DNA of 64,000 nucleotides from an uncultured Pelagibacteraceae bacterium (lineage in GTDB: Bacteria > Pseudomonadota > Alphaproteobacteria > Pelagibacterales > Pelagibacteraceae), in assembly GCA_902516625.1 (NCBI GenBank), contig CABXYU010000004.1:473-64472 (forward strand), read 5' to 3'. Under the pieces are notes generated by a model that saw only the letters and a list, made by a program, of their open reading frames with translations, had not been told where the DNA came from and did not search any database. The translations under genes and the position numbers were made by a program. Positions 3,592 to 56,907 of this stretch are shown here, in pieces. The number at the start of each line of letters is the position of its first letter. Positions within the stretch are counted from its first letter, which is position 1.

Positions 3592-4557
3592 TTAAAACCA
3601 ATTATTTGGAATAATTATGTAGTGAATTGCTAAAACAATTCCAACTGAAACACTCAATCCAAAGATCATTTTAAGAAAGTCTTTACCAATTAATGGGAAG
3701 ACATACTTAAATTTATAATCTTTGTTCATTGTTGAAATCGCAAGTTCTCTACCACATAATAAACCAACAAAAACCCATGTAGTTGACATAGGTAAATCAT
3801 TAAGTTCTTTAAAGTAGAATAAGACACCAGCATAAATTACGTTGATAATTGTAGCTGATCTTGCATATCTAGTTCCAGTTTTTTCTAAAACTACAGTTTG
3901 TATTCGTCCACCTTGAATATAGAAGATGTAAAATAGCAAAGCTGTAAAATATCCCATTACAGTTAGCAGAATTGTTATATCCAGTTGTCTTGGAAGATAT
4001 ACAGCAATGTTTGCTACATCATGAGATAACCAAACCCACCAAAGCCAACCTGAAGTGACCCATACTGAGTTTCTCCAAAAGCCTATATACTTTTCATCAA
4101 CTTCATCTAATTTTTCATTGATAAATTTTGATACAACAATCCAAGCAATATAAGCGACCATTGCTGCTAAACCATAACCAACTACACTTTTTAATAGCAT
4201 TTTTTCAAGCACAACTGTTGAAGCAAACGCTGAAAGAACTAAAAAGGTTGTGGATACAGGTATACCAACTCTTGTTAATATTAAGAGTATTGCAGGCGCT
4301 ACTGCATGATACCATTGAATTTCTTGATAAGGTATTCTAGTTAATCTTCCATATGAAATATCACCATCATACGCATACCATCCCCATGCTAAAGCTAAAA
4401 TCATTACACTAGAAGCTGATCCTGCAAGTATGTACCATTTGAACCACTTCTTTTTTGAAGCTATAAATGTACCTAATGTTTGAATTGAGTCGTTAGCGAT
4501 TACGCTATAACCGGCAAGGGCGAAGCCTATAACCGTATAAATTAAAGTCATTTCCAT
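3592..4557 (-). CDS. Integral membrane protein, divergent PiT/PHO4-like transporter
   Basis: 321 aa, hydrophobic; duplicated PiT-like motifs ANDSIQT/PVSTT and SHDVANIA/PMSTT; AAGGAG RBS. Confidence 0.6.
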   Translation of the reverse strand: MEMTLIYTVIGFALAGYSVIANDSIQTLGTFIASKKKWFKWYILAGSASSVMILALAWGWYAYDGDISYGRLTRIPYQEIQWYHAVAPAILLILTRVGIPVSTTFLVLSAFASTVVLEKMLLKSVVGYGLAAMVAYIAWIVVSKFINEKLDEVDEKYIGFWRNSVWVTSGWLWWVWLSHDVANIAVYLPRQLDITILLTVMGYFTALLFYIFYIQGGRIQTVVLEKTGTRYARSATIINVIYAGVLFYFKELNDLPMSTTWVFVGLLCGRELAISTMNKDYKFKYVFPLIGKDFLKMIFGLSVSVGIVLAIHYIIIPNNWF

Positions 4558-47364: not shown

Positions 47365-47631
47365 ATGAAATTTTTTGTATATATGCTCATTTCAAAGAAA
47401 AAGAGCAAATATTTTTCTTATGTTGGTTACAGCAAAGACTTAAAAAAAAGACTATATTTACATAATACTTCAAAAGGAGCTAAATACACAAAAGGTAAAA
47501 AATGGAAATTGATTTACAAAAAAGGCTTTTCGACAAAATCAATAGCTTTAAAAGAGGAGTATAAGCTAAAAAATGATTATCATTTAAGAAATAAATTAAA
47601 AAGAAGATATATTAAAGATGCTGAAGTATAA
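47365..47631 (+). CDS. Stand-alone GIY-YIG nuclease (UPF0213-like)
   Basis: FVYML..SYVGY..RL..HN..KGAKYT..E. Confidence 0.85.
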   Translation: MKFFVYMLISKKKSKYFSYVGYSKDLKKRLYLHNTSKGAKYTKGKKWKLIYKKGFSTKSIALKEEYKLKNDYHLRNKLKRRYIKDAEV

Positions 47632-48211
47632 AAAAATAAAAGGCAATTTAGTTCACAAAACAGCTGTAATTGACTGGAGTAAATTAATTATAGGCAAGGG
47701 TAATAAAATAGGACCTTACGTTATAATTGGAAATGATCCGCAACATCCAAAGTCAAAAAGTAAGGGAAAAATTTTTATAGGTAATAACAATACTTTTAAT
47801 GAATTTTGTAATATTCATTTACCAACAAAGATCAAAAAAAAAACAATAATTGGTGACAATAATTATTTTATGAATGCCTCAACAATAGATCACGACTGTA
47901 TCATCGAAGATAATGTAATTTTATCAAGTAACACAATTTTAGGAGGCAATGTCATTATAATGAAAAATTCTCAATTAGGTATTGGGGTTACTGTGCATCA
48001 AAATCAAATAATTGGCTCATATGTTATGATTGGAATGAAGTCGTTAATAACCAAAAAATTAAAAGTCAAACCGGGTTATATGTATTATGGAAAACCCGCA
48101 AAAATGATAAAAAAAAATTTAGTTGGTATAAAAAGAAATAAAATAACTGAAGAAATATTAAAAAAAGAATATAAAAGATTTTTAGATCTTAAAAGAAAAA
48201 ATGAAAAATAA
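47618..48211 (+). CDS. Left-handed beta-helix acyl/acetyltransferase, LpxA-like
   Basis: Hexapeptide repeats; IGNDPQ, NEFCNIH, TIIGDNNYFM, DHDC. Confidence 0.75.
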   Translation: MLKYKKIKGNLVHKTAVIDWSKLIIGKGNKIGPYVIIGNDPQHPKSKSKGKIFIGNNNTFNEFCNIHLPTKIKKKTIIGDNNYFMNASTIDHDCIIEDNVILSSNTILGGNVIIMKNSQLGIGVTVHQNQIIGSYVMIGMKSLITKKLKVKPGYMYYGKPAKMIKKNLVGIKRNKITEEILKKEYKRFLDLKRKNEK

Positions 48212-50282
48212 AATTGCTATATTATTGCCCTATAAAGAAAATTATAACATAGATAAAGCTGGTGCTGCTTCGATATGGGTAAAGGATTATCTAAAACTAA
48301 GTAATTTAAAAAAAAAAACAATAGTATACGGAAGTCTTGATCGTAAACTAAAACCTTTAACTAATAATTTTAAGAACATTGACATAAGTAAGACAATTTT
48401 AAGTAAAAATATTTATTACACAAAACAACTATTAAAAGAGTACCAAAAAAATAAATTCTCAATAATAGAGATACACAACAGGCCAGAATCTCTTCTTTAT
48501 ATGATCAAAAATAAAGTTTCTTCTAAACTAATATTTGTTTTTCACAATAACCCTCAAGACATGAGAGGCTCAGTTTCTATTAAAGAAAGAATTTTCTTAG
48601 CTGAAAATACTGATTATATTTATTTTGTAAGCAACTGGGTTAAAAAAAAATTTTTTGAAGGCTTGCCTTATGAAAATAGAAATAATTGCGAGATTTTATA
48701 CCCAGCAATTAAACAGCTTAAAAGATTTCCAAAAAAAAATAAAACAATTATCTTCTGTGGTAAATTAAATTCATCAAAAGGTTTTGATATCTTTGGAAAA
48801 GCTACAATTAGAGTATTGACTGAATTTAAAGATTGGAATGCAATAGCAATCGGGAACGAACCGAGAGAAAAATATATATTTAAACATAAAAATTTTAAAA
48901 TTCTTGATTGGGTAAAACATCAGGATATTTTAAAATATTACTCAAAATCCTCAATATCGATTGTACCATCAAAATGGCAAGAACCATTCGGTAGAACAGC
49001 AATGGAGTCTGCAGCACATGGCTGTGCGACTATTACTAGTAATAAAGGTGGTCTGATTGAAACTTTTAAAAATGATCTAGTATTGAAAAATTTAAATCAT
49101 ATAGAACTATATAAAATTATTAAAAAGTTAATTTTAAATAAGACTTTACTTAAAAAGATTCAAAGAAAAAATTTTTTAAATGTTGTTCACAAACTTGAAC
49201 ATAAAGTAATTAAAATTGATAGACTTAAAAATTTCTTATTAAAACCAAAGATTAACTTTTTAAATAAGTCAAAATATAAGATTTTACATATCTCACAGTT
49301 CGATGAACGTAATAATTTTAGACTATTTAATATTTCCATTGCTAATAAAATTTCTAAGGGTTTTATCAGAAACGGACACGATGTAATTAATCTAAGTTAT
49401 AGAAATTATATAAATAAAAATTTACTTAAAGATAGATTTGAATTTATAAATGAAAAAATTAAATCAATTGTTGAAAATTATAGACCCTCTTTAATTGTGC
49501 TAGGACATAACAATGTTCTGACAAGAAATACGATTGAACAAATAAAGAAAAGATATAGTACAAAAATATCATTATGGTATGAGGATGCTTTAGGTGAAAG
49601 AGGAGAGGGCCCTAATTGGCAAAAAAATCTAAAGCTTATTGAAAAAAATAGCGATCTCATCGATAGCTATTTTACTACAACTCATCCTGATGAAATCAAA
49701 TCAGTAATAAAAAAAAATAAGATGCATTTTTTACCCATTCCAGTTGATGAAAATATTGAAGATCTCGAACTTTACAAAATTCATGATAAATTTAAGGATC
49801 TTTTCTTTGCCCTAAGTCATGGAGTAAATTTTGGGAAACTTAAAAAAAGAAAAATTGATGAAAGAGAAAAATTTATTAATTCATTAATGAATAAATTTCC
49901 AAATTTAAATTACAATATACTAGGAATGGCTAATGAAAATCCAAAATGGAATTATGATTTCTATAACGAATTAGCTAAGTGTAAGATCGCTTTGAACTTA
50001 AGCAGGGGTTTGCCAATAAAATATACCTCTAGCAACAGAATAGCATCTCTAATAGGGAATGGAATCTATACCTTTGTTGATAAAAAAACTCAATTAAGTG
50101 ATTTTTTTAGTGAGGACGAGGTTGGTACTTACATTTCTATTGACGAATTAGGTAATAAGATAGAAAAATTGTTATCAAAACCAAGTTTAATAAATAAATA
50201 TGCTCAAAACGGCTGTAGAAAATATTTCAAATTATTTAATAATAAGATCATCACTGCAAAAATGATTGATAGAACTTTCTAA
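48201..50282 (+). CDS. Two-module glycosyltransferase (GT4-like plus second GT-B-like module)
   Basis: IHNRP, PSKWQEPFGRTAME; second module with IALNLSR...YTSSNRI. Confidence 0.8.
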   Translation: MKNKIAILLPYKENYNIDKAGAASIWVKDYLKLSNLKKKTIVYGSLDRKLKPLTNNFKNIDISKTILSKNIYYTKQLLKEYQKNKFSIIEIHNRPESLLYMIKNKVSSKLIFVFHNNPQDMRGSVSIKERIFLAENTDYIYFVSNWVKKKFFEGLPYENRNNCEILYPAIKQLKRFPKKNKTIIFCGKLNSSKGFDIFGKATIRVLTEFKDWNAIAIGNEPREKYIFKHKNFKILDWVKHQDILKYYSKSSISIVPSKWQEPFGRTAMESAAHGCATITSNKGGLIETFKNDLVLKNLNHIELYKIIKKLILNKTLLKKIQRKNFLNVVHKLEHKVIKIDRLKNFLLKPKINFLNKSKYKILHISQFDERNNFRLFNISIANKISKGFIRNGHDVINLSYRNYINKNLLKDRFEFINEKIKSIVENYRPSLIVLGHNNVLTRNTIEQIKKRYSTKISLWYEDALGERGEGPNWQKNLKLIEKNSDLIDSYFTTTHPDEIKSVIKKNKMHFLPIPVDENIEDLELYKIHDKFKDLFFALSHGVNFGKLKKRKIDEREKFINSLMNKFPNLNYNILGMANENPKWNYDFYNELAKCKIALNLSRGLPIKYTSSNRIASLIGNGIYTFVDKKTQLSDFFSEDEVGTYISIDELGNKIEKLLSKPSLINKYAQNGCRKYFKLFNNKIITAKMIDRTF

Positions 50283-50291
50283 AACTGTTTT

Positions 50292-51374
50292 ATGATAAAA
50301 TTTTTAGATATTAATAATCAAGATAAACAAATATTAAATTTAATATATTCAGATATTAGAAAAATAATTAAAAAAAATAATTTTATTTTAGGGGAACAAG
50401 TAACAAAATTTGAAAATAAATTCTCAATCCTTTGTGGCAGCAAATACTCAATTAGTTGTGCTAATGGTACTGATGCACTTCTAATAGCTCTTAAGAGTTT
50501 AGACTTACCCAAGAACAGTGAAGTTATATTACCTGCTATGACCTATTGTTCTACTGCATTTGCTGTAATTAATGCTGGGTTAAAACCTATTTTAGTAGAC
50601 GTAGATTATTTGAGTCCACTTCTTAACTTGCAGAATTTAAAAAATAAAATAACAAAAAAAACTAAAGTCATAATGCCAGTTCATCTTTATGGTTCTGTTG
50701 TAAATATTCCTTTAATTAGAAAAATACTAAATAATAAAAAGATTTTTATAATTGATGATTGTTCACAAGCCCACGGCGCTAAATTTTATAAAAAGAAAGT
50801 AGGATCGATGGCTGACATTTCATGTTTTAGCCTTTATCCAGGTAAAAATTTAGGTGCTTATGGAGATGCAGGAGTGATTACTACCAATAATAGAAGTTTA
50901 AATATTAAAATGAAAAATTACAGGAATTTAGGCTCCTTGCAAAAATTTAAACATACTCAAATTGGAGTAAATAGTAGGCTCGATACTTTACAGGCAGCAA
51001 TTTTATTAAGAAAATTACCTTTGTTGAATAAATATAACAATAAAAGAAACAAAATAGCTAAATATTATGATTTAAAGATTAATAACACTAAGATTAAAAA
51101 ACTAAATTATGTTGATGGTGCAGTTTATCATCAATATGTTATTCTCTCAAATAATAGAAAAAAACTCACTGACCTTTTAAAGAAAAATAATATACAATTT
51201 GGTTTCCATTACCCATATCCAATTCATAAATTGCAAGCACTAAGGAAATATTTTAGAAAACAAAAATATAAAAATGCGGAGATGCTTGCTAGCAAAGGTA
51301 TCAGTTTACCAATTGATCCCAATCTAAGTAAAAAAAATCAAGATAAAATAATTAAAGTTTTAAATAGTTTCTAA
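50292..51374 (+). CDS. DegT/DnrJ/EryC1/StrS sugar aminotransferase
   Basis: NGTDAL, VHLYG, DCSQAHGA, SLYPGKNLGAYGDAG, NSRLD. Confidence 0.92.
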   Translation: MIKFLDINNQDKQILNLIYSDIRKIIKKNNFILGEQVTKFENKFSILCGSKYSISCANGTDALLIALKSLDLPKNSEVILPAMTYCSTAFAVINAGLKPILVDVDYLSPLLNLQNLKNKITKKTKVIMPVHLYGSVVNIPLIRKILNNKKIFIIDDCSQAHGAKFYKKKVGSMADISCFSLYPGKNLGAYGDAGVITTNNRSLNIKMKNYRNLGSLQKFKHTQIGVNSRLDTLQAAILLRKLPLLNKYNNKRNKIAKYYDLKINNTKIKKLNYVDGAVYHQYVILSNNRKKLTDLLKKNNIQFGFHYPYPIHKLQALRKYFRKQKYKNAEMLASKGISLPIDPNLSKKNQDKIIKVLNSF

Positions 51375-52349
51375 AAACTTTAATATTTTAAGTGAAAATA
51401 AAAAGTCAGTAATAGGCCTATCCTTTTTTTTCAATTTTAAAAAATATTTTATTTCATTTAGAAGTGACTGAGAGGACTTTATCTTAGGTGAAAAATTTTT
51501 ACCTAAGTAGATCAAAGCTTTTGCTTCAAAAAATTTTTTATTAAATTCGTGGATTTTGGGATATTTTGCATATTTATTATATATTCTGATAGGATTTACT
51601 AAATCCATTTCATCAAAGGAAAGCATTTTTTTTGAACCAACAATATTAATTTTTCTTATTTTAGTTGGGTTGATCCAATTATTATTAATATCGATGAAAG
51701 TATTATCAAGTTTCATATGTAGGTTTGAAATATCGCAAAGATTCTTTTTTAATATGGGATATTTTATGTGGGAAATTTTTTTTGGCAATTTACCAAATAA
51801 AAATAATATAATACTTAAATCATGAGAAGTTAAATCATAGGTTACATCAACATCATTTCTTATTGGACCTAAATTTTGTCTTTGAAAGTTAATATATAAA
51901 AGTTTTCCCAAAACATTTTTTGATATTATTTTTTTAATATATTTTATATGGTCACTAAAACAGTAAACATAACCAAACATTACTCGACTATTAAATTTTT
52001 TGTTCAATTTGATCAATTTATTCAGATCAGAAGATTTGTTTACGCCTGGTTTTTCAAGAAAAATTATTTTGTTGTTTATAATAGCTTGTTTTACTAAACT
52101 ATAATTCATTGAAGGAGGAGTCGCAAAAAAAAGATTTGTTAAATCTTTATCAAATAATATTTTGCTATAATTTTTAATTATTTTAACGGTATTGTATTTT
52201 TTTTTTAATGCATGTAAATTTTTTGCACTAGAATCGTATATAAAAATATTCTTTAAACCTAATTCAATTAAAGTTTTAGTAATAATTGTCCCCCAATATC
52301 CACAACCAATTATTGCTATTTTTTTATCTTTGTTAATTATGGTATTCAT
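51360..52349 (-). CDS. Gfo/Idh/MocA-family NAD-dependent oxidoreductase
   Basis: GCGYWG, ATPP, LEKP, DLTSHD. Confidence 0.88.
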   Translation of the reverse strand: MNTIINKDKKIAIIGCGYWGTIITKTLIELGLKNIFIYDSSAKNLHALKKKYNTVKIIKNYSKILFDKDLTNLFFATPPSMNYSLVKQAIINNKIIFLEKPGVNKSSDLNKLIKLNKKFNSRVMFGYVYCFSDHIKYIKKIISKNVLGKLLYINFQRQNLGPIRNDVDVTYDLTSHDLSIILFLFGKLPKKISHIKYPILKKNLCDISNLHMKLDNTFIDINNNWINPTKIRKINIVGSKKMLSFDEMDLVNPIRIYNKYAKYPKIHEFNKKFFEAKALIYLGKNFSPKIKSSQSLLNEIKYFLKLKKKDRPITDFLFSLKILKFLETI

Positions 52350-52384
52350 TTAATAAATCTTTTATAAGAAGGTATACTAGCAAA

Positions 52385-53260
52385 ATGAATTTTTCTATTA
52401 TTATCCCTACTTTTGAAAATTATAATTATTTGTCTTTGTGTATAGAGTCAATCCAAAAAAATTCTTATTATGACCATGAAATAATAATTCATATTAATGG
52501 TTTAGACGAACAAACTAAAAATCTTATTTTAAAAAAAAAACTATTATATACAGAAAGTGAAAAAAATATTGGTTTATGTAGAGGTGTTAATCTAGCATCT
52601 AAAAAAAGCTCGACAAAATATATTGTATATGCTCATGATGATATGTATTTTCTTCCAAAGTGGGATTATTATCTAGCTGAAGAAATAAACAATCTAAAAT
52701 CTAATTTATTTTACTTTTCATCAACTCAAATAAGTCATATTTCCGATAAAAAAGGGAAGGAAATACCTAATCATATTTATTTTGATGCAGGTAAAAATAT
52801 TGATACTTTTGATGAAAAAAAAATTTTACTTAATTTTGAAAATTTGAATTTTCACGATCTACAGGGTAGTCATTGGGCTCCACATGTAATTCATAAAGAT
52901 ATTTGGGAGAAAATTGGTGGATTTAGTGAAGAATTTGATCCTGGATTTGGATCAGACCCTGATTTAAATATGAAGCTATGGCAAATAGGTGTAAGGATTT
53001 TTAAGGGTGTAAATAAATCTCGGGTTTATCATTTTGGATCGTTAACGACAAGAAAAAATAAAGATGTTATTCAAAACAAAGGACGAAAAACTTTTTTAAT
53101 TAAATGGAAAATCACAACAGATTTTTTTACAAAATTTTATTTGCTAAGAGGGAATAAATATGATGGTCCTTTAAAAATACCAAGTTTTACTTTATTATAT
53201 ATATTTAACTTATTGATCAATAAAATAGTTTATTTTTTTTATAAATGGATAAAAAACTGA
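52385..53260 (+). CDS. Glycosyltransferase family 2
   Basis: SIIIPT, AHDD, GGFSEEF..GSDPD. Confidence 0.88.
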   Translation: MNFSIIIPTFENYNYLSLCIESIQKNSYYDHEIIIHINGLDEQTKNLILKKKLLYTESEKNIGLCRGVNLASKKSSTKYIVYAHDDMYFLPKWDYYLAEEINNLKSNLFYFSSTQISHISDKKGKEIPNHIYFDAGKNIDTFDEKKILLNFENLNFHDLQGSHWAPHVIHKDIWEKIGGFSEEFDPGFGSDPDLNMKLWQIGVRIFKGVNKSRVYHFGSLTTRKNKDVIQNKGRKTFLIKWKITTDFFTKFYLLRGNKYDGPLKIPSFTLLYIFNLLINKIVYFFYKWIKN

Positions 53261-54159
53261 TAGTTAGAATTGCCGAAGGTCTTGGTAATCAATTGTTTAT
53301 GTATGCAAATGCTTTTTCTTTATCAAAAGATTTAGATTATGATCTTTATGTAGATGATAAAAGTGGTTTCATAAAAACAAAAAATTTTAGAAATTATTAC
53401 TTAAATGAATTTAACTTATCATCAAAGATAATCCCAGATAATGAAAAATTCGACACTACTTTTTTAAACTTAAAAAGAAAAATACTAAAACAAATTGATT
53501 TTTTTAAAACAAAAAAGTCTTTTTTGATCGAGAAAAAATCTTTAAATAAAAATACCAAATTTTATGATATTAAGAAAAAGAATTATTCAAATAGGCTTTA
53601 TGTTGAAGGTCATTATGAGTCTGAGCAATATTTTTTAAAACACCGAAATGACTTATTAAAAGAATTTTCTTTCAAAAACGAAAATAATTTTAAAAAAAAT
53701 ATGTATTATGAAATGATTAAATCTTCATCAGAAAATATAGTTTCAATTTCAATTCGAACAAATAGATTTTCTGAAAGGGAAGATAATAGATTCAATAATA
53801 TATCAAAAAACAAATCAAGTCAATTTACGCATGATACAATTGAATATGTTTATCGTGCCATTAAGAATGTTAAAATTAATATTCCTAATGCTAAATTTTT
53901 AATATGGAGTAATGATTTTTCTGGTTTAAGAGAATATTTTCCACAAAATGAATTTATATTTATTGATAATAAGATAGACAAAATTCATAATGATTTTTAT
54001 TTATTGTCATTATGTAAAAATTTTATTGTCGGTCCTACTTCTTTTCATTGGTGGGGAGCTTGGTTAAATAAAAATAGCAATAAAATATGTTTTAGACCCA
54101 AAAATTTGAATCCATCAAATAACAATGATTTTTGGCCGAAAAACTGGATTAGTATCTAA
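53245..54159 (+). CDS. Glycosyltransferase family 11 (alpha-1,2-fucosyltransferase-like)
   Basis: GLGNQLFMYA, GHYESEQYF, SFHWWGAWL. Confidence 0.8.
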   Translation: MDKKLIVRIAEGLGNQLFMYANAFSLSKDLDYDLYVDDKSGFIKTKNFRNYYLNEFNLSSKIIPDNEKFDTTFLNLKRKILKQIDFFKTKKSFLIEKKSLNKNTKFYDIKKKNYSNRLYVEGHYESEQYFLKHRNDLLKEFSFKNENNFKKNMYYEMIKSSSENIVSISIRTNRFSEREDNRFNNISKNKSSQFTHDTIEYVYRAIKNVKINIPNAKFLIWSNDFSGLREYFPQNEFIFIDNKIDKIHNDFYLLSLCKNFIVGPTSFHWWGAWLNKNSNKICFRPKNLNPSNNNDFWPKNWISI

Positions 54160-55061
54160 AATTTTATTTTATTTAAAGCATTATTTTTAAATAAGTTTGC
54201 TTCATGTATATATCTTCTAACCATTTGAGTTGTTTTATGACCTGTCATAGCCATAATATTTCTTTCCTCGGCTCCAAATTCTGCTGCTGTTGTGGCAAAA
54301 CCTGATCTTAAACTATGTCCGGCATATTTAGATGGGTCTAGACCAGCTTTTTCTGCATATTTTTTTATAATAAGTGCAACTGATTTATCTGAAATCCCAA
54401 AAACTTTTCCTTCTGATTTTATTGTAATTTTTTGATTAATATAATTTTTCAGAGTTAGTACTGGGCAAAATTCTTTATTATCAAAGTAGGGGATAGCTTT
54501 AACTGTACCTTCTCCTGATTGATCTGTTTTAGATCTTTTAACCAAAATCCTTACTCCTTCAGATACAAATTCAATATCCTCATAGTCTATATTTACAAGT
54601 TCTGATCTTCTAAACCCACCAGCGAACCCTATTAAAATTAAGGCCTTATCTCTTATTTTTTCTTCATCTATTGCTTTAATAATTAATTTTAAATCATTGA
54701 TTAATATAGGTTTTTTTGCCTTTTGCCTTGAGCCTAAAGTTCTTTTAATTCCATGTAAATTTTCCATAATAATAGGATGTTTGGTGTCCAGGTAATGCCC
54801 TTTTAGCTTATGTATAACGCTAATTGAGGCTATTCTTCTTTTTAAAGTGCTAAATTTAGATGATTTAGATAAATGGGTAATATAAATTGCGATTATTTTT
54901 GGCTGTGTTGGGATCGAAGATAAGCCATTTTTTGCACAGAAAGCTGAAAAATCTTTAAAATCAGATTGATATGCTCTTAATGTGTTATTAGCTTTTGAAT
55001 TTTTTAAGTTTTTTAAAGTTTCAATTTCTAAGCTTTTAACATCTGTTATTAAATCATTCAT
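54156..55061 (-). CDS. Cre-type tyrosine site-specific recombinase
   Basis: N-terminal NTLRAYQSD helix; catalytic set R (FRRSEL), K (RSKTDQ), HxxR (GHSLRSG), H (TGHK), Y (VRRY). Confidence 0.9.
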   Translation of the reverse strand: MNDLITDVKSLEIETLKNLKNSKANNTLRAYQSDFKDFSAFCAKNGLSSIPTQPKIIAIYITHLSKSSKFSTLKRRIASISVIHKLKGHYLDTKHPIIMENLHGIKRTLGSRQKAKKPILINDLKLIIKAIDEEKIRDKALILIGFAGGFRRSELVNIDYEDIEFVSEGVRILVKRSKTDQSGEGTVKAIPYFDNKEFCPVLTLKNYINQKITIKSEGKVFGISDKSVALIIKKYAEKAGLDPSKYAGHSLRSGFATTAAEFGAEERNIMAMTGHKTTQMVRRYIHEANLFKNNALNKIKF

Positions 55062-55065
55062 AATT

Positions 55066-55094
55066 ATTTCCGATAACCATTAATTATCGGAAAT
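55066..55094. promoter_or_regulatory. Candidate recombinase target site (lox/dif-like 11-7-11 inverted repeat)
   Basis: ATTTCCGATAA-CCATTAA-TTATCGGAAAT; perfect arms, asymmetric spacer, 4 bp upstream of the recombinase ATG. Confidence 0.75.
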
Positions 55095-55121
55095 TATATA
55101 ATAGGTGATTTTTAATGTCAA
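55093..55121 (-). promoter_or_regulatory. Consensus sigma70 promoter of the recombinase gene
   Basis: TTGACA (55121-55116), 17 bp, TATAAT (55098-55093). Confidence 0.8.
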
Positions 55122-55323: not shown

Positions 55324-55593
55324 ATGCAGGGAACAAAGTTTCAATTAAAAGTCTGGAAATACCTTAAAACTATACCAAAAGGTAAAGTAAAAACCTATAA
55401 ACAGGTTGCTATTGGCATAAAAAGCCCTAAATCGGCTCGTGCTGTAGCTAATGCTTGTGCTAAAAACCCATATCCTCCAAAAATACCTTGTCATAGAGTG
55501 ATTAGGTCCGATGGAGCGCTTGGAGGCTACTCTGGCAGAGGTGGAATTAGGCAAAAGCTCAGATTACTTAGATCTGAAAAAGTAGCGATTTAG
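55324..55593 (+). CDS. Single-domain O6-alkylguanine-DNA alkyltransferase (MGMT family)
   Basis: IPKGKVKTY, ARAVA, IPCHRV, LGGY. Confidence 0.88.
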   Translation: MQGTKFQLKVWKYLKTIPKGKVKTYKQVAIGIKSPKSARAVANACAKNPYPPKIPCHRVIRSDGALGGYSGRGGIRQKLRLLRSEKVAI

Positions 55594-56055
55594 CCCTATT
55601 TTAAGCCTTTTTTAAGTAAAAAAAGTAAGTAAAAATAAAGGTTTTTTAACCTTTTTACGTGATTAATCCGTAAATAATACAATTCACCCTTTAGTTGTAC
55701 CAGAAATGAGCTTATAACTAAAATAGACCCCTCTATGGGCGTTTAAATGGTATATTCAATTAGTGCATCGCTCCACTATTCAACTATATCAATGCTTTTT
55801 GCCTCCCCTATTTTTATGGAATTTCATAACTACAATTGTTTAAAAAAGCTCTATTTTAAAGGATTATTTTATGTTTTTCTTAATTTCCTAAAAATTCAAA
55901 TTCTTGCACAGGATTTTAAGGTGATTTTACATTAAATAATTAAAAATATTCTAGTAATTATATTTTTTATACAATTAATAAAATATAATAAATACAACGG
56001 TTTAAATTATATACTTAATGTAATACTTTATATATTAGTAAATAAATAATACCTA

Positions 56056-56907
56056 TTATTTAACTTTTTTAACTAAGTTCTCTCTTCTTGAGATGTAGAT
56101 ACCACTTAATACAATAATAAATAAACCAATGAAAGTCCAATTATCAGGGAAATCACTGAAGAAATAATAACCTATAATGATGTTTGTAATAATCTCAAAG
56201 TAGCTAAATGGAGCCAATTTAGAGGCATCTGCGTATTTGAGAGACAATATTAAAAATAAATGCCCTATACAAGCAAATACACCTATGGCAGCCATCATAG
56301 ACCACTGATTTAATGTTGGTTTTACCCACACAAATGGCATTACAATTGATATGATTACGGCCCCTACTACACCAGTCAATAATAAAGTAAGTAGAGGATT
56401 ATCTGAGGTACTTAATTTACGAGTGATAATTAAATAAAAACCATACATCACACCTGTTCCAAGAGCAGCTATACTTGCTAAGTTAATCTCAACAAAACCT
56501 GGTCTTATTACTACTAAAGACCCTATAAAACCTATAATTACTGCAGACCATCTTCTAAATCCCACCTTCTCATCTAAAAAAACTGGAGAAAAAGCTGTAA
56601 CAATTAAAGGAGCGACAAAAGCTAAAGTTAATGCTTTAGCCAAAGAGATAACTGAAATCGCATAAAAGAAACAGATGTTAGCTGTTAAAAGAATTAAACC
56701 TCTTATGAATTGTAATTTTGGTTTATCAGTCCATACAAGATTTTTTCGAAAAAAGAAAAACATTATTGGAAAAGTAAATGCAACAGTAAAAAAATATCTT
56801 GCCCAAGTTATTTGTAATATTGGAAGATCTGCACTTAAGTATTTCGCAAATCCATCCATAATTGGGAGCATTACCCATGCTAAAAGATTAAATGTTATAG
56901 CCTTCAT
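56056..56907 (-). CDS. DMT/EamA-family transporter
   Basis: About 10 TM helices; APLIVTAFS..LDEKVG.RRW, ASKLAPFSY. Confidence 0.85.
   Translation of the reverse strand: MKAITFNLLAWVMLPIMDGFAKYLSADLPILQITWARYFFTVAFTFPIMFFFFRKNLVWTDKPKLQFIRGLILLTANICFFYAISVISLAKALTLAFVAPLIVTAFSPVFLDEKVGFRRWSAVIIGFIGSLVVIRPGFVEINLASIAALGTGVMYGFYLIITRKLSTSDNPLLTLLLTGVVGAVIISIVMPFVWVKPTLNQWSMMAAIGVFACIGHLFLILSLKYADASKLAPFSYFEIITNIIIGYYFFSDFPDNWTFIGLFIIVLSGIYISRRENLVKKVK

Follow-up and report, generated by a model that had tools for sequence, protein, structure and literature searches.

A Cre-type recombinase and its adjoining palindrome, a probable single-enzyme chromosome dimer resolution module in SAR11 bacteria

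Which enzyme resolves chromosome dimers in SAR11 bacteria? Pelagibacter is listed as lacking dif/Xer in the accessible text of Carnoy and Roten 2009 (PMC2731167). The question is raised by a locus in the stretch of DNA analysed here, a 64,000-nucleotide window taken from C4, a contig in the assembly (795 kb, 65% complete) of an uncultured Pelagibacteraceae bacterium. The organisms named for its close homologues point to Pelagibacterales, and the main SAR11 family examined below is probably Pelagibacteraceae. The window carries a gene for a Cre-type tyrosine recombinase and, directly upstream of it, an inverted repeat. Judging from sequence comparison, we consider it probable that gene and repeat form a module for single-enzyme chromosome dimer resolution, in which a domesticated plasmid-type resolvase would act in place of XerCD/dif.

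The original prediction, made from the window alone, described an intact Cre-like recombinase, unlike XerC/D, with an SKTDQ motif and a full catalytic set. We found that the open reading frame (ORF) at 54156-55061 has no internal stops and matches PF00589 and PF02899, and that R151, K178 (within SKTDQ), H249, R252, H275 and Y284 are invariant among 47 aligned relatives. The protein has the R-K-H-R-H/W-Y set and the core-binding plus catalytic domain fold of the tyrosine recombinase superfamily. It scored far below the cut-offs of the Xer models, with 72 and 79 bits for XerC and XerD (cut-offs of about 330), 62 for XerS (267) and 82 for XerA (220). A search with the single sequence returned XerD as the top, weak match, and a 47-sequence profile placed Cre first (E 3.5e-28), followed by XerD (8e-18) and XerH (2.6e-12). 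The predicted structure, with a predicted local distance difference test score of 88.5, is likewise closest to Cre (Z 23.4, root-mean-square deviation 3.5 over 275 residues), the other fold matches including XerA (Z 19.3), XerH (18.3) and XerD (13.0). Cre is the nearest solved structure by both measures, and the word Cre-like can stand for profile and fold, but the nearest relatives in sequence are plasmid integrases without prior study (38-44% identity), followed by a TnpS-like protein of pWW0 (27% identity, 110 bits). His275 occupies the position of Cre Trp315. The enzyme is thus Cre-type in fold, yet it lacks this Trp and a 13-8-13 site. The recombinase was matched by 2,182 protein clusters at E<=1e-30, and contigs from RNA libraries (Logan) span the gene, which as contigs cannot show transcription or a start site.

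Between the promoter and the ATG, 4 bp from the latter, lies the palindrome ATTTCCGATAA-CCATTAA-TTATCGGAAAT (55066-55094). Its arms are perfect over 11 bp and agree at 13 of 14 positions when extended, just as had been read from the window. The claim that a second full site is lacking also held, as no further copy was found in the assembly even when up to 6 mismatches were allowed. The inverted repeat was rejected as evidence by itself: a search for perfect 11-bp inverted repeats with a 6-8 bp gap returned 15 rows in the same assembly. Because such repeats are not rare here, the significance of the site rests on its conservation. Across 53 loci the core GATAA-N7-TTATC was invariant, the arms were symmetric and the centre measured 7 bp in every case, a form that does not match the asymmetric 11-6-11 dif; in 52 of them, TTGAC lay 32-34 bp upstream of this core. 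Moreover, we identified the same palindrome upstream of distant relatives, namely in 7 of 14 parsed proteobacterial loci (against 0 of 380 single-base shuffles; 5 of 19 loci had been dropped since no ORF was parsed), in 3 of 4 plasmid loci, one with N6, and in all 7 parsed viral loci, which had been selected by that motif. Since distant relatives carry the same core, the enzyme very likely targets this palindrome, and a 7-bp spacer would be normal for this branch.

We found the recombinase in 136 of 150 genomes of the main SAR11 family (a tally that takes in G045 and G124, used in no other result) and in 104 of the 111 near-complete ones, a distribution that is not patchy. It was present in all 43 one-contig genomes, as the sole PF00589 match in 26, and the site core occurred exactly once in 42 of them; the 43rd, G091, carries a spacer variant. 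In 14 of 14 regions from four genera the module occupied the same chromosomal slot, in the same orientation to its flanks, among housekeeping or sugar genes. Elsewhere in the phylum the recombinase family is patchy (18 of 300 genomes), as expected of mobile genes.

Replacement of XerCD/dif had been predicted, and a search for XerCD bore on it directly. The XerD model at E<=1e-40 matched none of 180 main-family genomes. All 20 genomes of the sister family f2 were matched, 18 of them twice and all just under the curated cut-off, and these genomes have no orthologue of the recombinase, only matches of 23-30% at their own Xer loci. The site was likewise found in none of the four f2 genomes checked. 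An Xer pair without the orthologue in f2 is the pattern expected if the module replaced XerCD. A GATAA-N5-TTATC palindrome with outer symmetry was seen near xerD in two f2 genomes (L390, near 3561; L391, near 302). Some database entries name the SAR11 recombinase XerD, and its function has so far been presumed from this label, with neither the site nor the Cre-type, single-enzyme character taken into account.

The palindrome was expected to be single and to lie where replication forks converge. In the window, 41 plus-strand and 17 minus-strand ORFs lie left of the site and 2 and 7 right of it, and cumulative GC skew peaks at 54,095. In the whole 1,308,759-bp chromosome of G069, the site (998.85 kb) is within 4 kb of the cumulative GC-skew maximum (996.0 kb), the AT-skew maximum (1002.2 kb) and the gene-strand switch (996.1 kb), the minima being at 362-369 kb. 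Similarly, 14 of 15 copies in G069 of the octamer GGGNAGGG, the motif of FtsK-orienting polar sequences (KOPS), point to the site, making it the most skewed of 42 words of the same composition (pooled 72%). Ten further genomes have 159 copies, of which 133 point that way, including 30 of the 32 within 100 kb, and in G024 and G021 the strand of the motif flips within 1-5 kb on both sides of the site. The terminus as used here is the one inferred from skew and KOPS. Measured from dnaA, the site lies at 40-46% of the chromosome in all ten genomes of known length. In G023 and G029 the distance is only 40%, so oriC is probably some way from dnaA there, or the arms are unequal; perfect DnaA boxes form no cluster at the skew minimum of G069. 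The earlier hint that such an enzyme might work without FtsK fared less well, as an FtsK with four transmembrane segments and alpha, motor and gamma domains is encoded in the window's assembly and KOPS converge on the site. Taken together, the family has one conserved recombinase without XerCD, and a single-copy intergenic palindrome at the inferred terminus.

Several observations weigh against dimer resolution at the terminus. The raw skews of G069 follow gene orientation, and its coding-corrected GC3 skew forms a broad plateau from about 860 to 1,135 kb, too wide to locate the site. In G093 (11 of 16 copies) and G023 (8 of 13) the KOPS are weakly polar, five genome lengths were rounded in that analysis, and the window itself holds no KOPS. 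The completeness of the window's assembly is low. The recombinase had no match in 14 of the 150 genomes, all in 10-80 contigs, and in the five of these that were checked the site was missing too. Because the genomes are kin, the counts are not independent. Of 8 loci retrieved because breaks were suspected, 7 show frameshifts or stops, among them those of two one-contig genomes, G115 and G140. Several of the broken loci sit in visibly error-rich sequence, and sequencing error is the likely cause, though real decay may be involved. In L407 (G115) and L408 (G140) the recombinase is frameshifted, and G115 is also mismatched in one arm. Finally, a 2026 preprint (10.64898/2026.10.07.757358), in its accessible text, reports 'XerC and XerD' in Arctic Pelagibacterales genomes from Prokka annotation, a claim that our XerD search of the main family did not reproduce.

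On the dimer-resolution reading, four monomers would bind the two site copies of a dimeric chromosome, two per site and one per arm, and strand exchange across the 7-bp spacer would proceed via a Holliday junction to two monomer chromosomes. By reading KOPS, FtsK would carry the two sites to the septum and tilt the reaction in favour of resolution. Because the -10 box overlaps the site's end, the bound enzyme would likely repress its own gene; sitting over the transcription start, it may keep activity low. The module may have originated as a plasmid multimer-resolution module captured by the family's ancestor.

The overlap with the gene's own promoter also suits a different account, in which the palindrome is mainly an operator and the protein a terminus-binding or regulatory factor, or one engaged in decatenation, that rarely recombines. 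Integrase-fold repressors (SroF, MrpR) are among the fold matches, and the copies of the site in phages, described below, keep the arms with a spacer of variable length, which suits binding over strand exchange. We regard this account as improbable, however, since none of the six catalytic residues varies, the spacer in hosts is always 7 bp long and almost constant in sequence, something an operator would not require, and a gene that regulates itself would not need to remain at the terminus or to keep XerCD out.

The module that we read as a dimer resolution system occurs in two versions, at 301-326 amino acids of protein. Type A, to which the window belongs, lacks a 12-amino-acid loop and has TTCCGATAA arms (33 of 53 loci); type B has the longer enzyme, with the loop, and ACTAAYGATAA-type arms (20 of 53). 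Type A is overstated in this set, as 30 of the 53 loci were chosen as best matches to the window protein. Enzyme version and arm type were concordant in 53 of 53 loci. Because a quick tree of the recombinase needs only two changes of version, one of them forced, this concordance amounts to one or two events, not 53. Type A arms are invariant over 9 bp, and those of type B are symmetric to 14-15 bp. The type B loop aligns with FCRVRKNG..SQLS of Cre (residues about 241-257), and it may read the outer arm bases, which would fit the longer conserved arms of the loop-bearing version. In Cre, this loop contacts the outer lox bases; the accessible text of PMC3553980 yielded no passage supporting such a contact. 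The loop as sole cause of the arm sequence was weakened as an explanation, as long-loop relatives outside SAR11 also use TCCGATAA arms. On a GC-rich viral contig (L236:3102-3998) we observed a relative without the loop, with short TTCCGATAA arms and the site near 4001, possibly an independent short version. The type B genes of three genomes (L120, L121 and L043) are extended at the N-terminal end, with the site at a greater distance from the start codon.

We then compared the versions with the genes around them. Between G069 (type B) and G079, G093 and G135 (type A) the flanks are 85-88% identical and the recombinases 61-64%. The recombinase of G016 (genus g8, type B) is 80% like those of G015 and G083 (genus g1) and 52% like that of G008, a congener with flanks 73% alike. 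On a flank tree of ten g1 genomes, three version changes are forced. Because the versions disagree with the flanking genes, gene and site have likely been exchanged in place between lineages as one unit; the two matched versions would thus replace each other at the same chromosomal slot.

Both arm types also occur in viral sequences. Among 92 viral matches to type B arms, 76 are no more than 1.5 kb from terS or terL, 47 are accompanied by an exact type A arm at a distance of up to 50 bp and one adjoins a recombinase (12 of the 92 have short flanks). Their spacers measure 6, 7 and 8 nt in 24, 53 and 15 cases; the commonest host spacer appears in none of the 92 and the second commonest in 3. Of at least 121 viral type A matches, 41 have short flanks; among the matches listed, 37 lie near terL and 8 stand beside a recombinase of their own, in unrelated, mostly GC-richer contigs. 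For type A, the commonest host spacer is absent from 51 low-GC 7-bp phage spacers, and 14 of these are one base off. The genes flanking the phage sites are terminase subunits closest to those of pelagiphages, and tandem A and B sites with variable spacers lie between or beside terS and terL in L163, L151, L130, L302, L308, other viral loci and L286-L288. Imperfect tandem A and B sites were identified upstream of terL in the isolates HTVC106P, HTVC035P and HTVC100P; in the latter two the site is 180-290 bp from the record end, and record ends may be arbitrary. Greip has a type B site and HTVC010P a degenerate site only, and no full site was found in the stretches of Lederberg, Skadi-6 and Methylophilales phage Venkman. 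That phages mimic both host versions independently supports binding of these arms by the host enzyme.

We also looked for signs of prophage integration at the site, and none emerged. No Pelagibacter phage in the collection encodes the recombinase at E<=1e-5, and no recombinase was seen within 1.5 kb of 40 viral core matches, which is not proof of absence. At least 112 metagenome loci carry the spacer TTAATTG; those listed comprise 93 host, 17 phage and 2 unassigned loci, and the 44 two-sided loci among them include no phage-host hybrid junction, again not proof of absence. The site is also single in 42 one-contig genomes. The idea that type A phage spacers are never used by type A hosts was weakened, as TTAATTG occurs in 22 type A host loci and, within the same scan, in 14 type A phage loci. 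By analogy with phage P1, we prefer the view that the phage sites serve to circularise or monomerise phage DNA. They may instead titrate or recruit the enzyme as a DNA-binding factor, which their variable spacer length favours, or may serve rare integration. A wider scheme can be put forward only tentatively, as less likely than not: SAR11 would have swapped XerCD for a domesticated Cre-type resolvase in two interchangeable specificities, tandem sites at the packaging end of the genomes of its most abundant phages would let either host circularise or monomerise the phage DNA with a borrowed enzyme, mismatched spacers would bar entry into the chromosome, and phage pressure would drive the version swaps.

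The same data could be seen as the mark of a selfish or anti-phage cassette that is held at the terminus by history, with dimer resolution incidental or absent and the versions reflecting phage conflict. The swapping of versions between lineages, the two arm types carried by phages, the plasmid relatives beside toxin-antitoxin genes and the few copies that look broken are in its favour. It is nonetheless very improbable in our judgement, as the module is a fixed single copy in one slot of the convergence zone, in mutual exclusion with XerCD, and mobility genes are lacking nearby: as had been claimed, no phage, plasmid or transposon families were found in a scan of 55 window ORFs and another of 6, those right of 57.8 kb having been identified from translations, outside the family scan. 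Phage conflict is compatible with dimer resolution as a second layer. That the enzyme integrates or shuffles the adjoining variable sugar-modifying cassette, integron-like or pdif-like, is hardly credible: 0-8 variable genes abut the recombinase stop codon and 0-2 lie beside the site, and metagenome contigs diverge exactly at 54157, but no second site or cassette array was found in the assembly or the 42 one-contig genomes, the larger variable block is at the gene end away from the site, and the IntI model gave 33 bits against a cut-off of 265.

How does the proposed dimer resolution module relate to known systems? XerS/difSL of streptococci and lactococci, XerH/difH of Campylobacter and Helicobacter and XerL/dif of Legionellales (10.1101/2021.09.12.459815, accessible text) likewise comprise one recombinase and one terminus site, and the genes for XerS and XerH each make up a module with their site (PMC5357621, accessible text). 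The SAR11 protein differs from XerS in its length (not about 356 amino acids) and in its score for that model, its arms are symmetric around 7 bp whereas difSL is imperfect with an 11-bp centre, and its predicted fold is nearer to Cre than to XerH. The enzyme would work in the manner of these systems, probably without belonging to their families, a comparison made by model score for XerS and by profile and fold for XerH. XerCD/dif shares with the SAR11 module the terminus position, an FtsK with gamma domain and KOPS convergence, and differs in using two enzymes and an asymmetric 11-6-11 site.

Cre/loxP of phage P1, SCre/SloxP, VCre and Vika resemble the SAR11 module in their symmetric arms and a site beside the gene. 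The SAR11 enzyme, however, is only 16-19% identical to Cre, and type A lacks the loop. Its arms of 9-11 bp (A) or 14-15 bp (B) around 7 bp contrast with loxP 13-8-13, and its recombinase is a chromosomal core gene, unlike the phage and plasmid pairs. The validated SloxM1 site has the same TCCGATAA inner arm (PMC3082901, accessible text), the gap between GATAA/TTATC cores in SAR11 being 7 bp, one longer. SloxP was not found in the Shewanella plasmid locus L400, whose protein is thus a putative SCre.

The match in pWW0 is a 323-amino-acid integrase with a divergent 332-amino-acid partner, a pair that we take, by its sizes and by the layout in PMC7157771, to be TnpS/TnpT of Tn4651. Compared with TnpS/TnpT, the SAR11 gene has no divergent TnpT-like partner or transposase in the 14 regions or the window scan, and the intergenic region of pWW0 yielded no GATAA/TTATC palindrome with the pattern used. 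The plasmid integrases at 38-44% identity come from Alicyclobacillus, Protochlamydia, Rickettsiales Ac37b and Chromobacterium, three of the four with the same-core palindrome. The plasmid relatives in L386, L388 and L389 adjoin toxin-antitoxin pairs. In the first of these the palindrome is some 880 bp upstream and precedes an AbrB-PIN pair, which the enzyme may therefore regulate. Like integrative mobile elements exploiting Xer (CTX, LME-1) and plasmid cer/psi, pelagiphages bear the host's site in copy and lack a recombinase of this family. They differ in that no phage-host junction was seen in the 44 two-sided listed loci, that phage spacers are mostly unlike the host's, and that the arm types stand in tandem at a fixed position by terS/terL.

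The features of the locus are collected in Table 1.

Table 1. Coordinates within the window of the recombinase, its site and adjoining features
Feature	Position	Strand	Basis or remark
Cre-type tyrosine recombinase, 301 amino acids, short-loop (type A) version	54156..55061	-	ORF translation, profiles, predicted fold
Span of catalytic set R151, K178, H249, R252, H275, Y284	54210..54611	-	invariant columns; aligned to Cre catalytic positions
Junction F221/G222, place of the missing 12-amino-acid type B loop (aligned to Cre FCRVRKNG..SQLS)	54396..54401	-	
Gene-proximal arm ATTTCCGATAA	55066..55076	+	inner 9 bp invariant in 33/33 type A loci
Asymmetric 7-bp spacer; gene strand TTAATGG	55077..55083	+	TTAATGG in 42/53 loci; 7 bp in 53/53
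Promoter-proximal arm TTATCGGAAAT	55084..55094	+	
Consensus sigma-70 promoter TTGACA-17-TATAAT, 12/12 match	55093..55121	-	-10 box overlaps the site's outer end
Variable slot with sugar-modifying genes, up against the recombinase stop codon; outside the module	50292..54159	.	
Ogt-like alkyltransferase gene; customary site-side neighbour	55324..55593	+	10/14 regions

Around the module, a low-GC (22-25%) run at 47618-54159 holds acetyltransferase, glycosyltransferase, DegT and GT11 fucosyltransferase genes, and among relatives 0 to 8 genes lie between a 693-amino-acid glycosyltransferase and the recombinase. Just past the site, between the Ogt-like gene and an EamA transporter (55600-56056), is a 450-bp AT-rich intergenic stretch, long for SAR11.

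We found no description of the module in the literature searched, most subscription papers being outside the search. The accessible texts of PMC3025954 and PMC10250229 do not mention Pelagibacter, that of PMC8477408 has no such phage site, the main text of 10.1101/2025.06.25.661606, as far as accessible, has no match for Xer, FtsK, dimer, recombinase or terminus, and PMC11876622, 10.1101/542381, PMC10872708 and PMC9865509 do not describe the module in their accessible parts. The 8-bp-spacer screen of PMC10250229, as its accessible text presents it, would not have picked 7-bp pairs. In their two matched forms, enzyme and site represent a switch of specificity that occurs in nature, and they are candidates for compact recombinase/site pairs built on 7-bp spacers.

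Cre/loxP can replace dif if placed at the terminus (PMC2731167, accessible text). If dimer resolution is indeed its role, the module would be a natural case of such a replacement, previously only engineered, and would mean that single-enzyme dimer resolution arose independently one more time. It also provides SAR11 genomes with a marker of the terminus and corrects the 'XerD' labels in databases. The sites that phages carry for both versions suggest that pelagiphages of the HTVC010P and HTVC106P types make use of a host factor, and the module, if it works as proposed, would close the gap of a Pelagibacter without a dif/Xer system.

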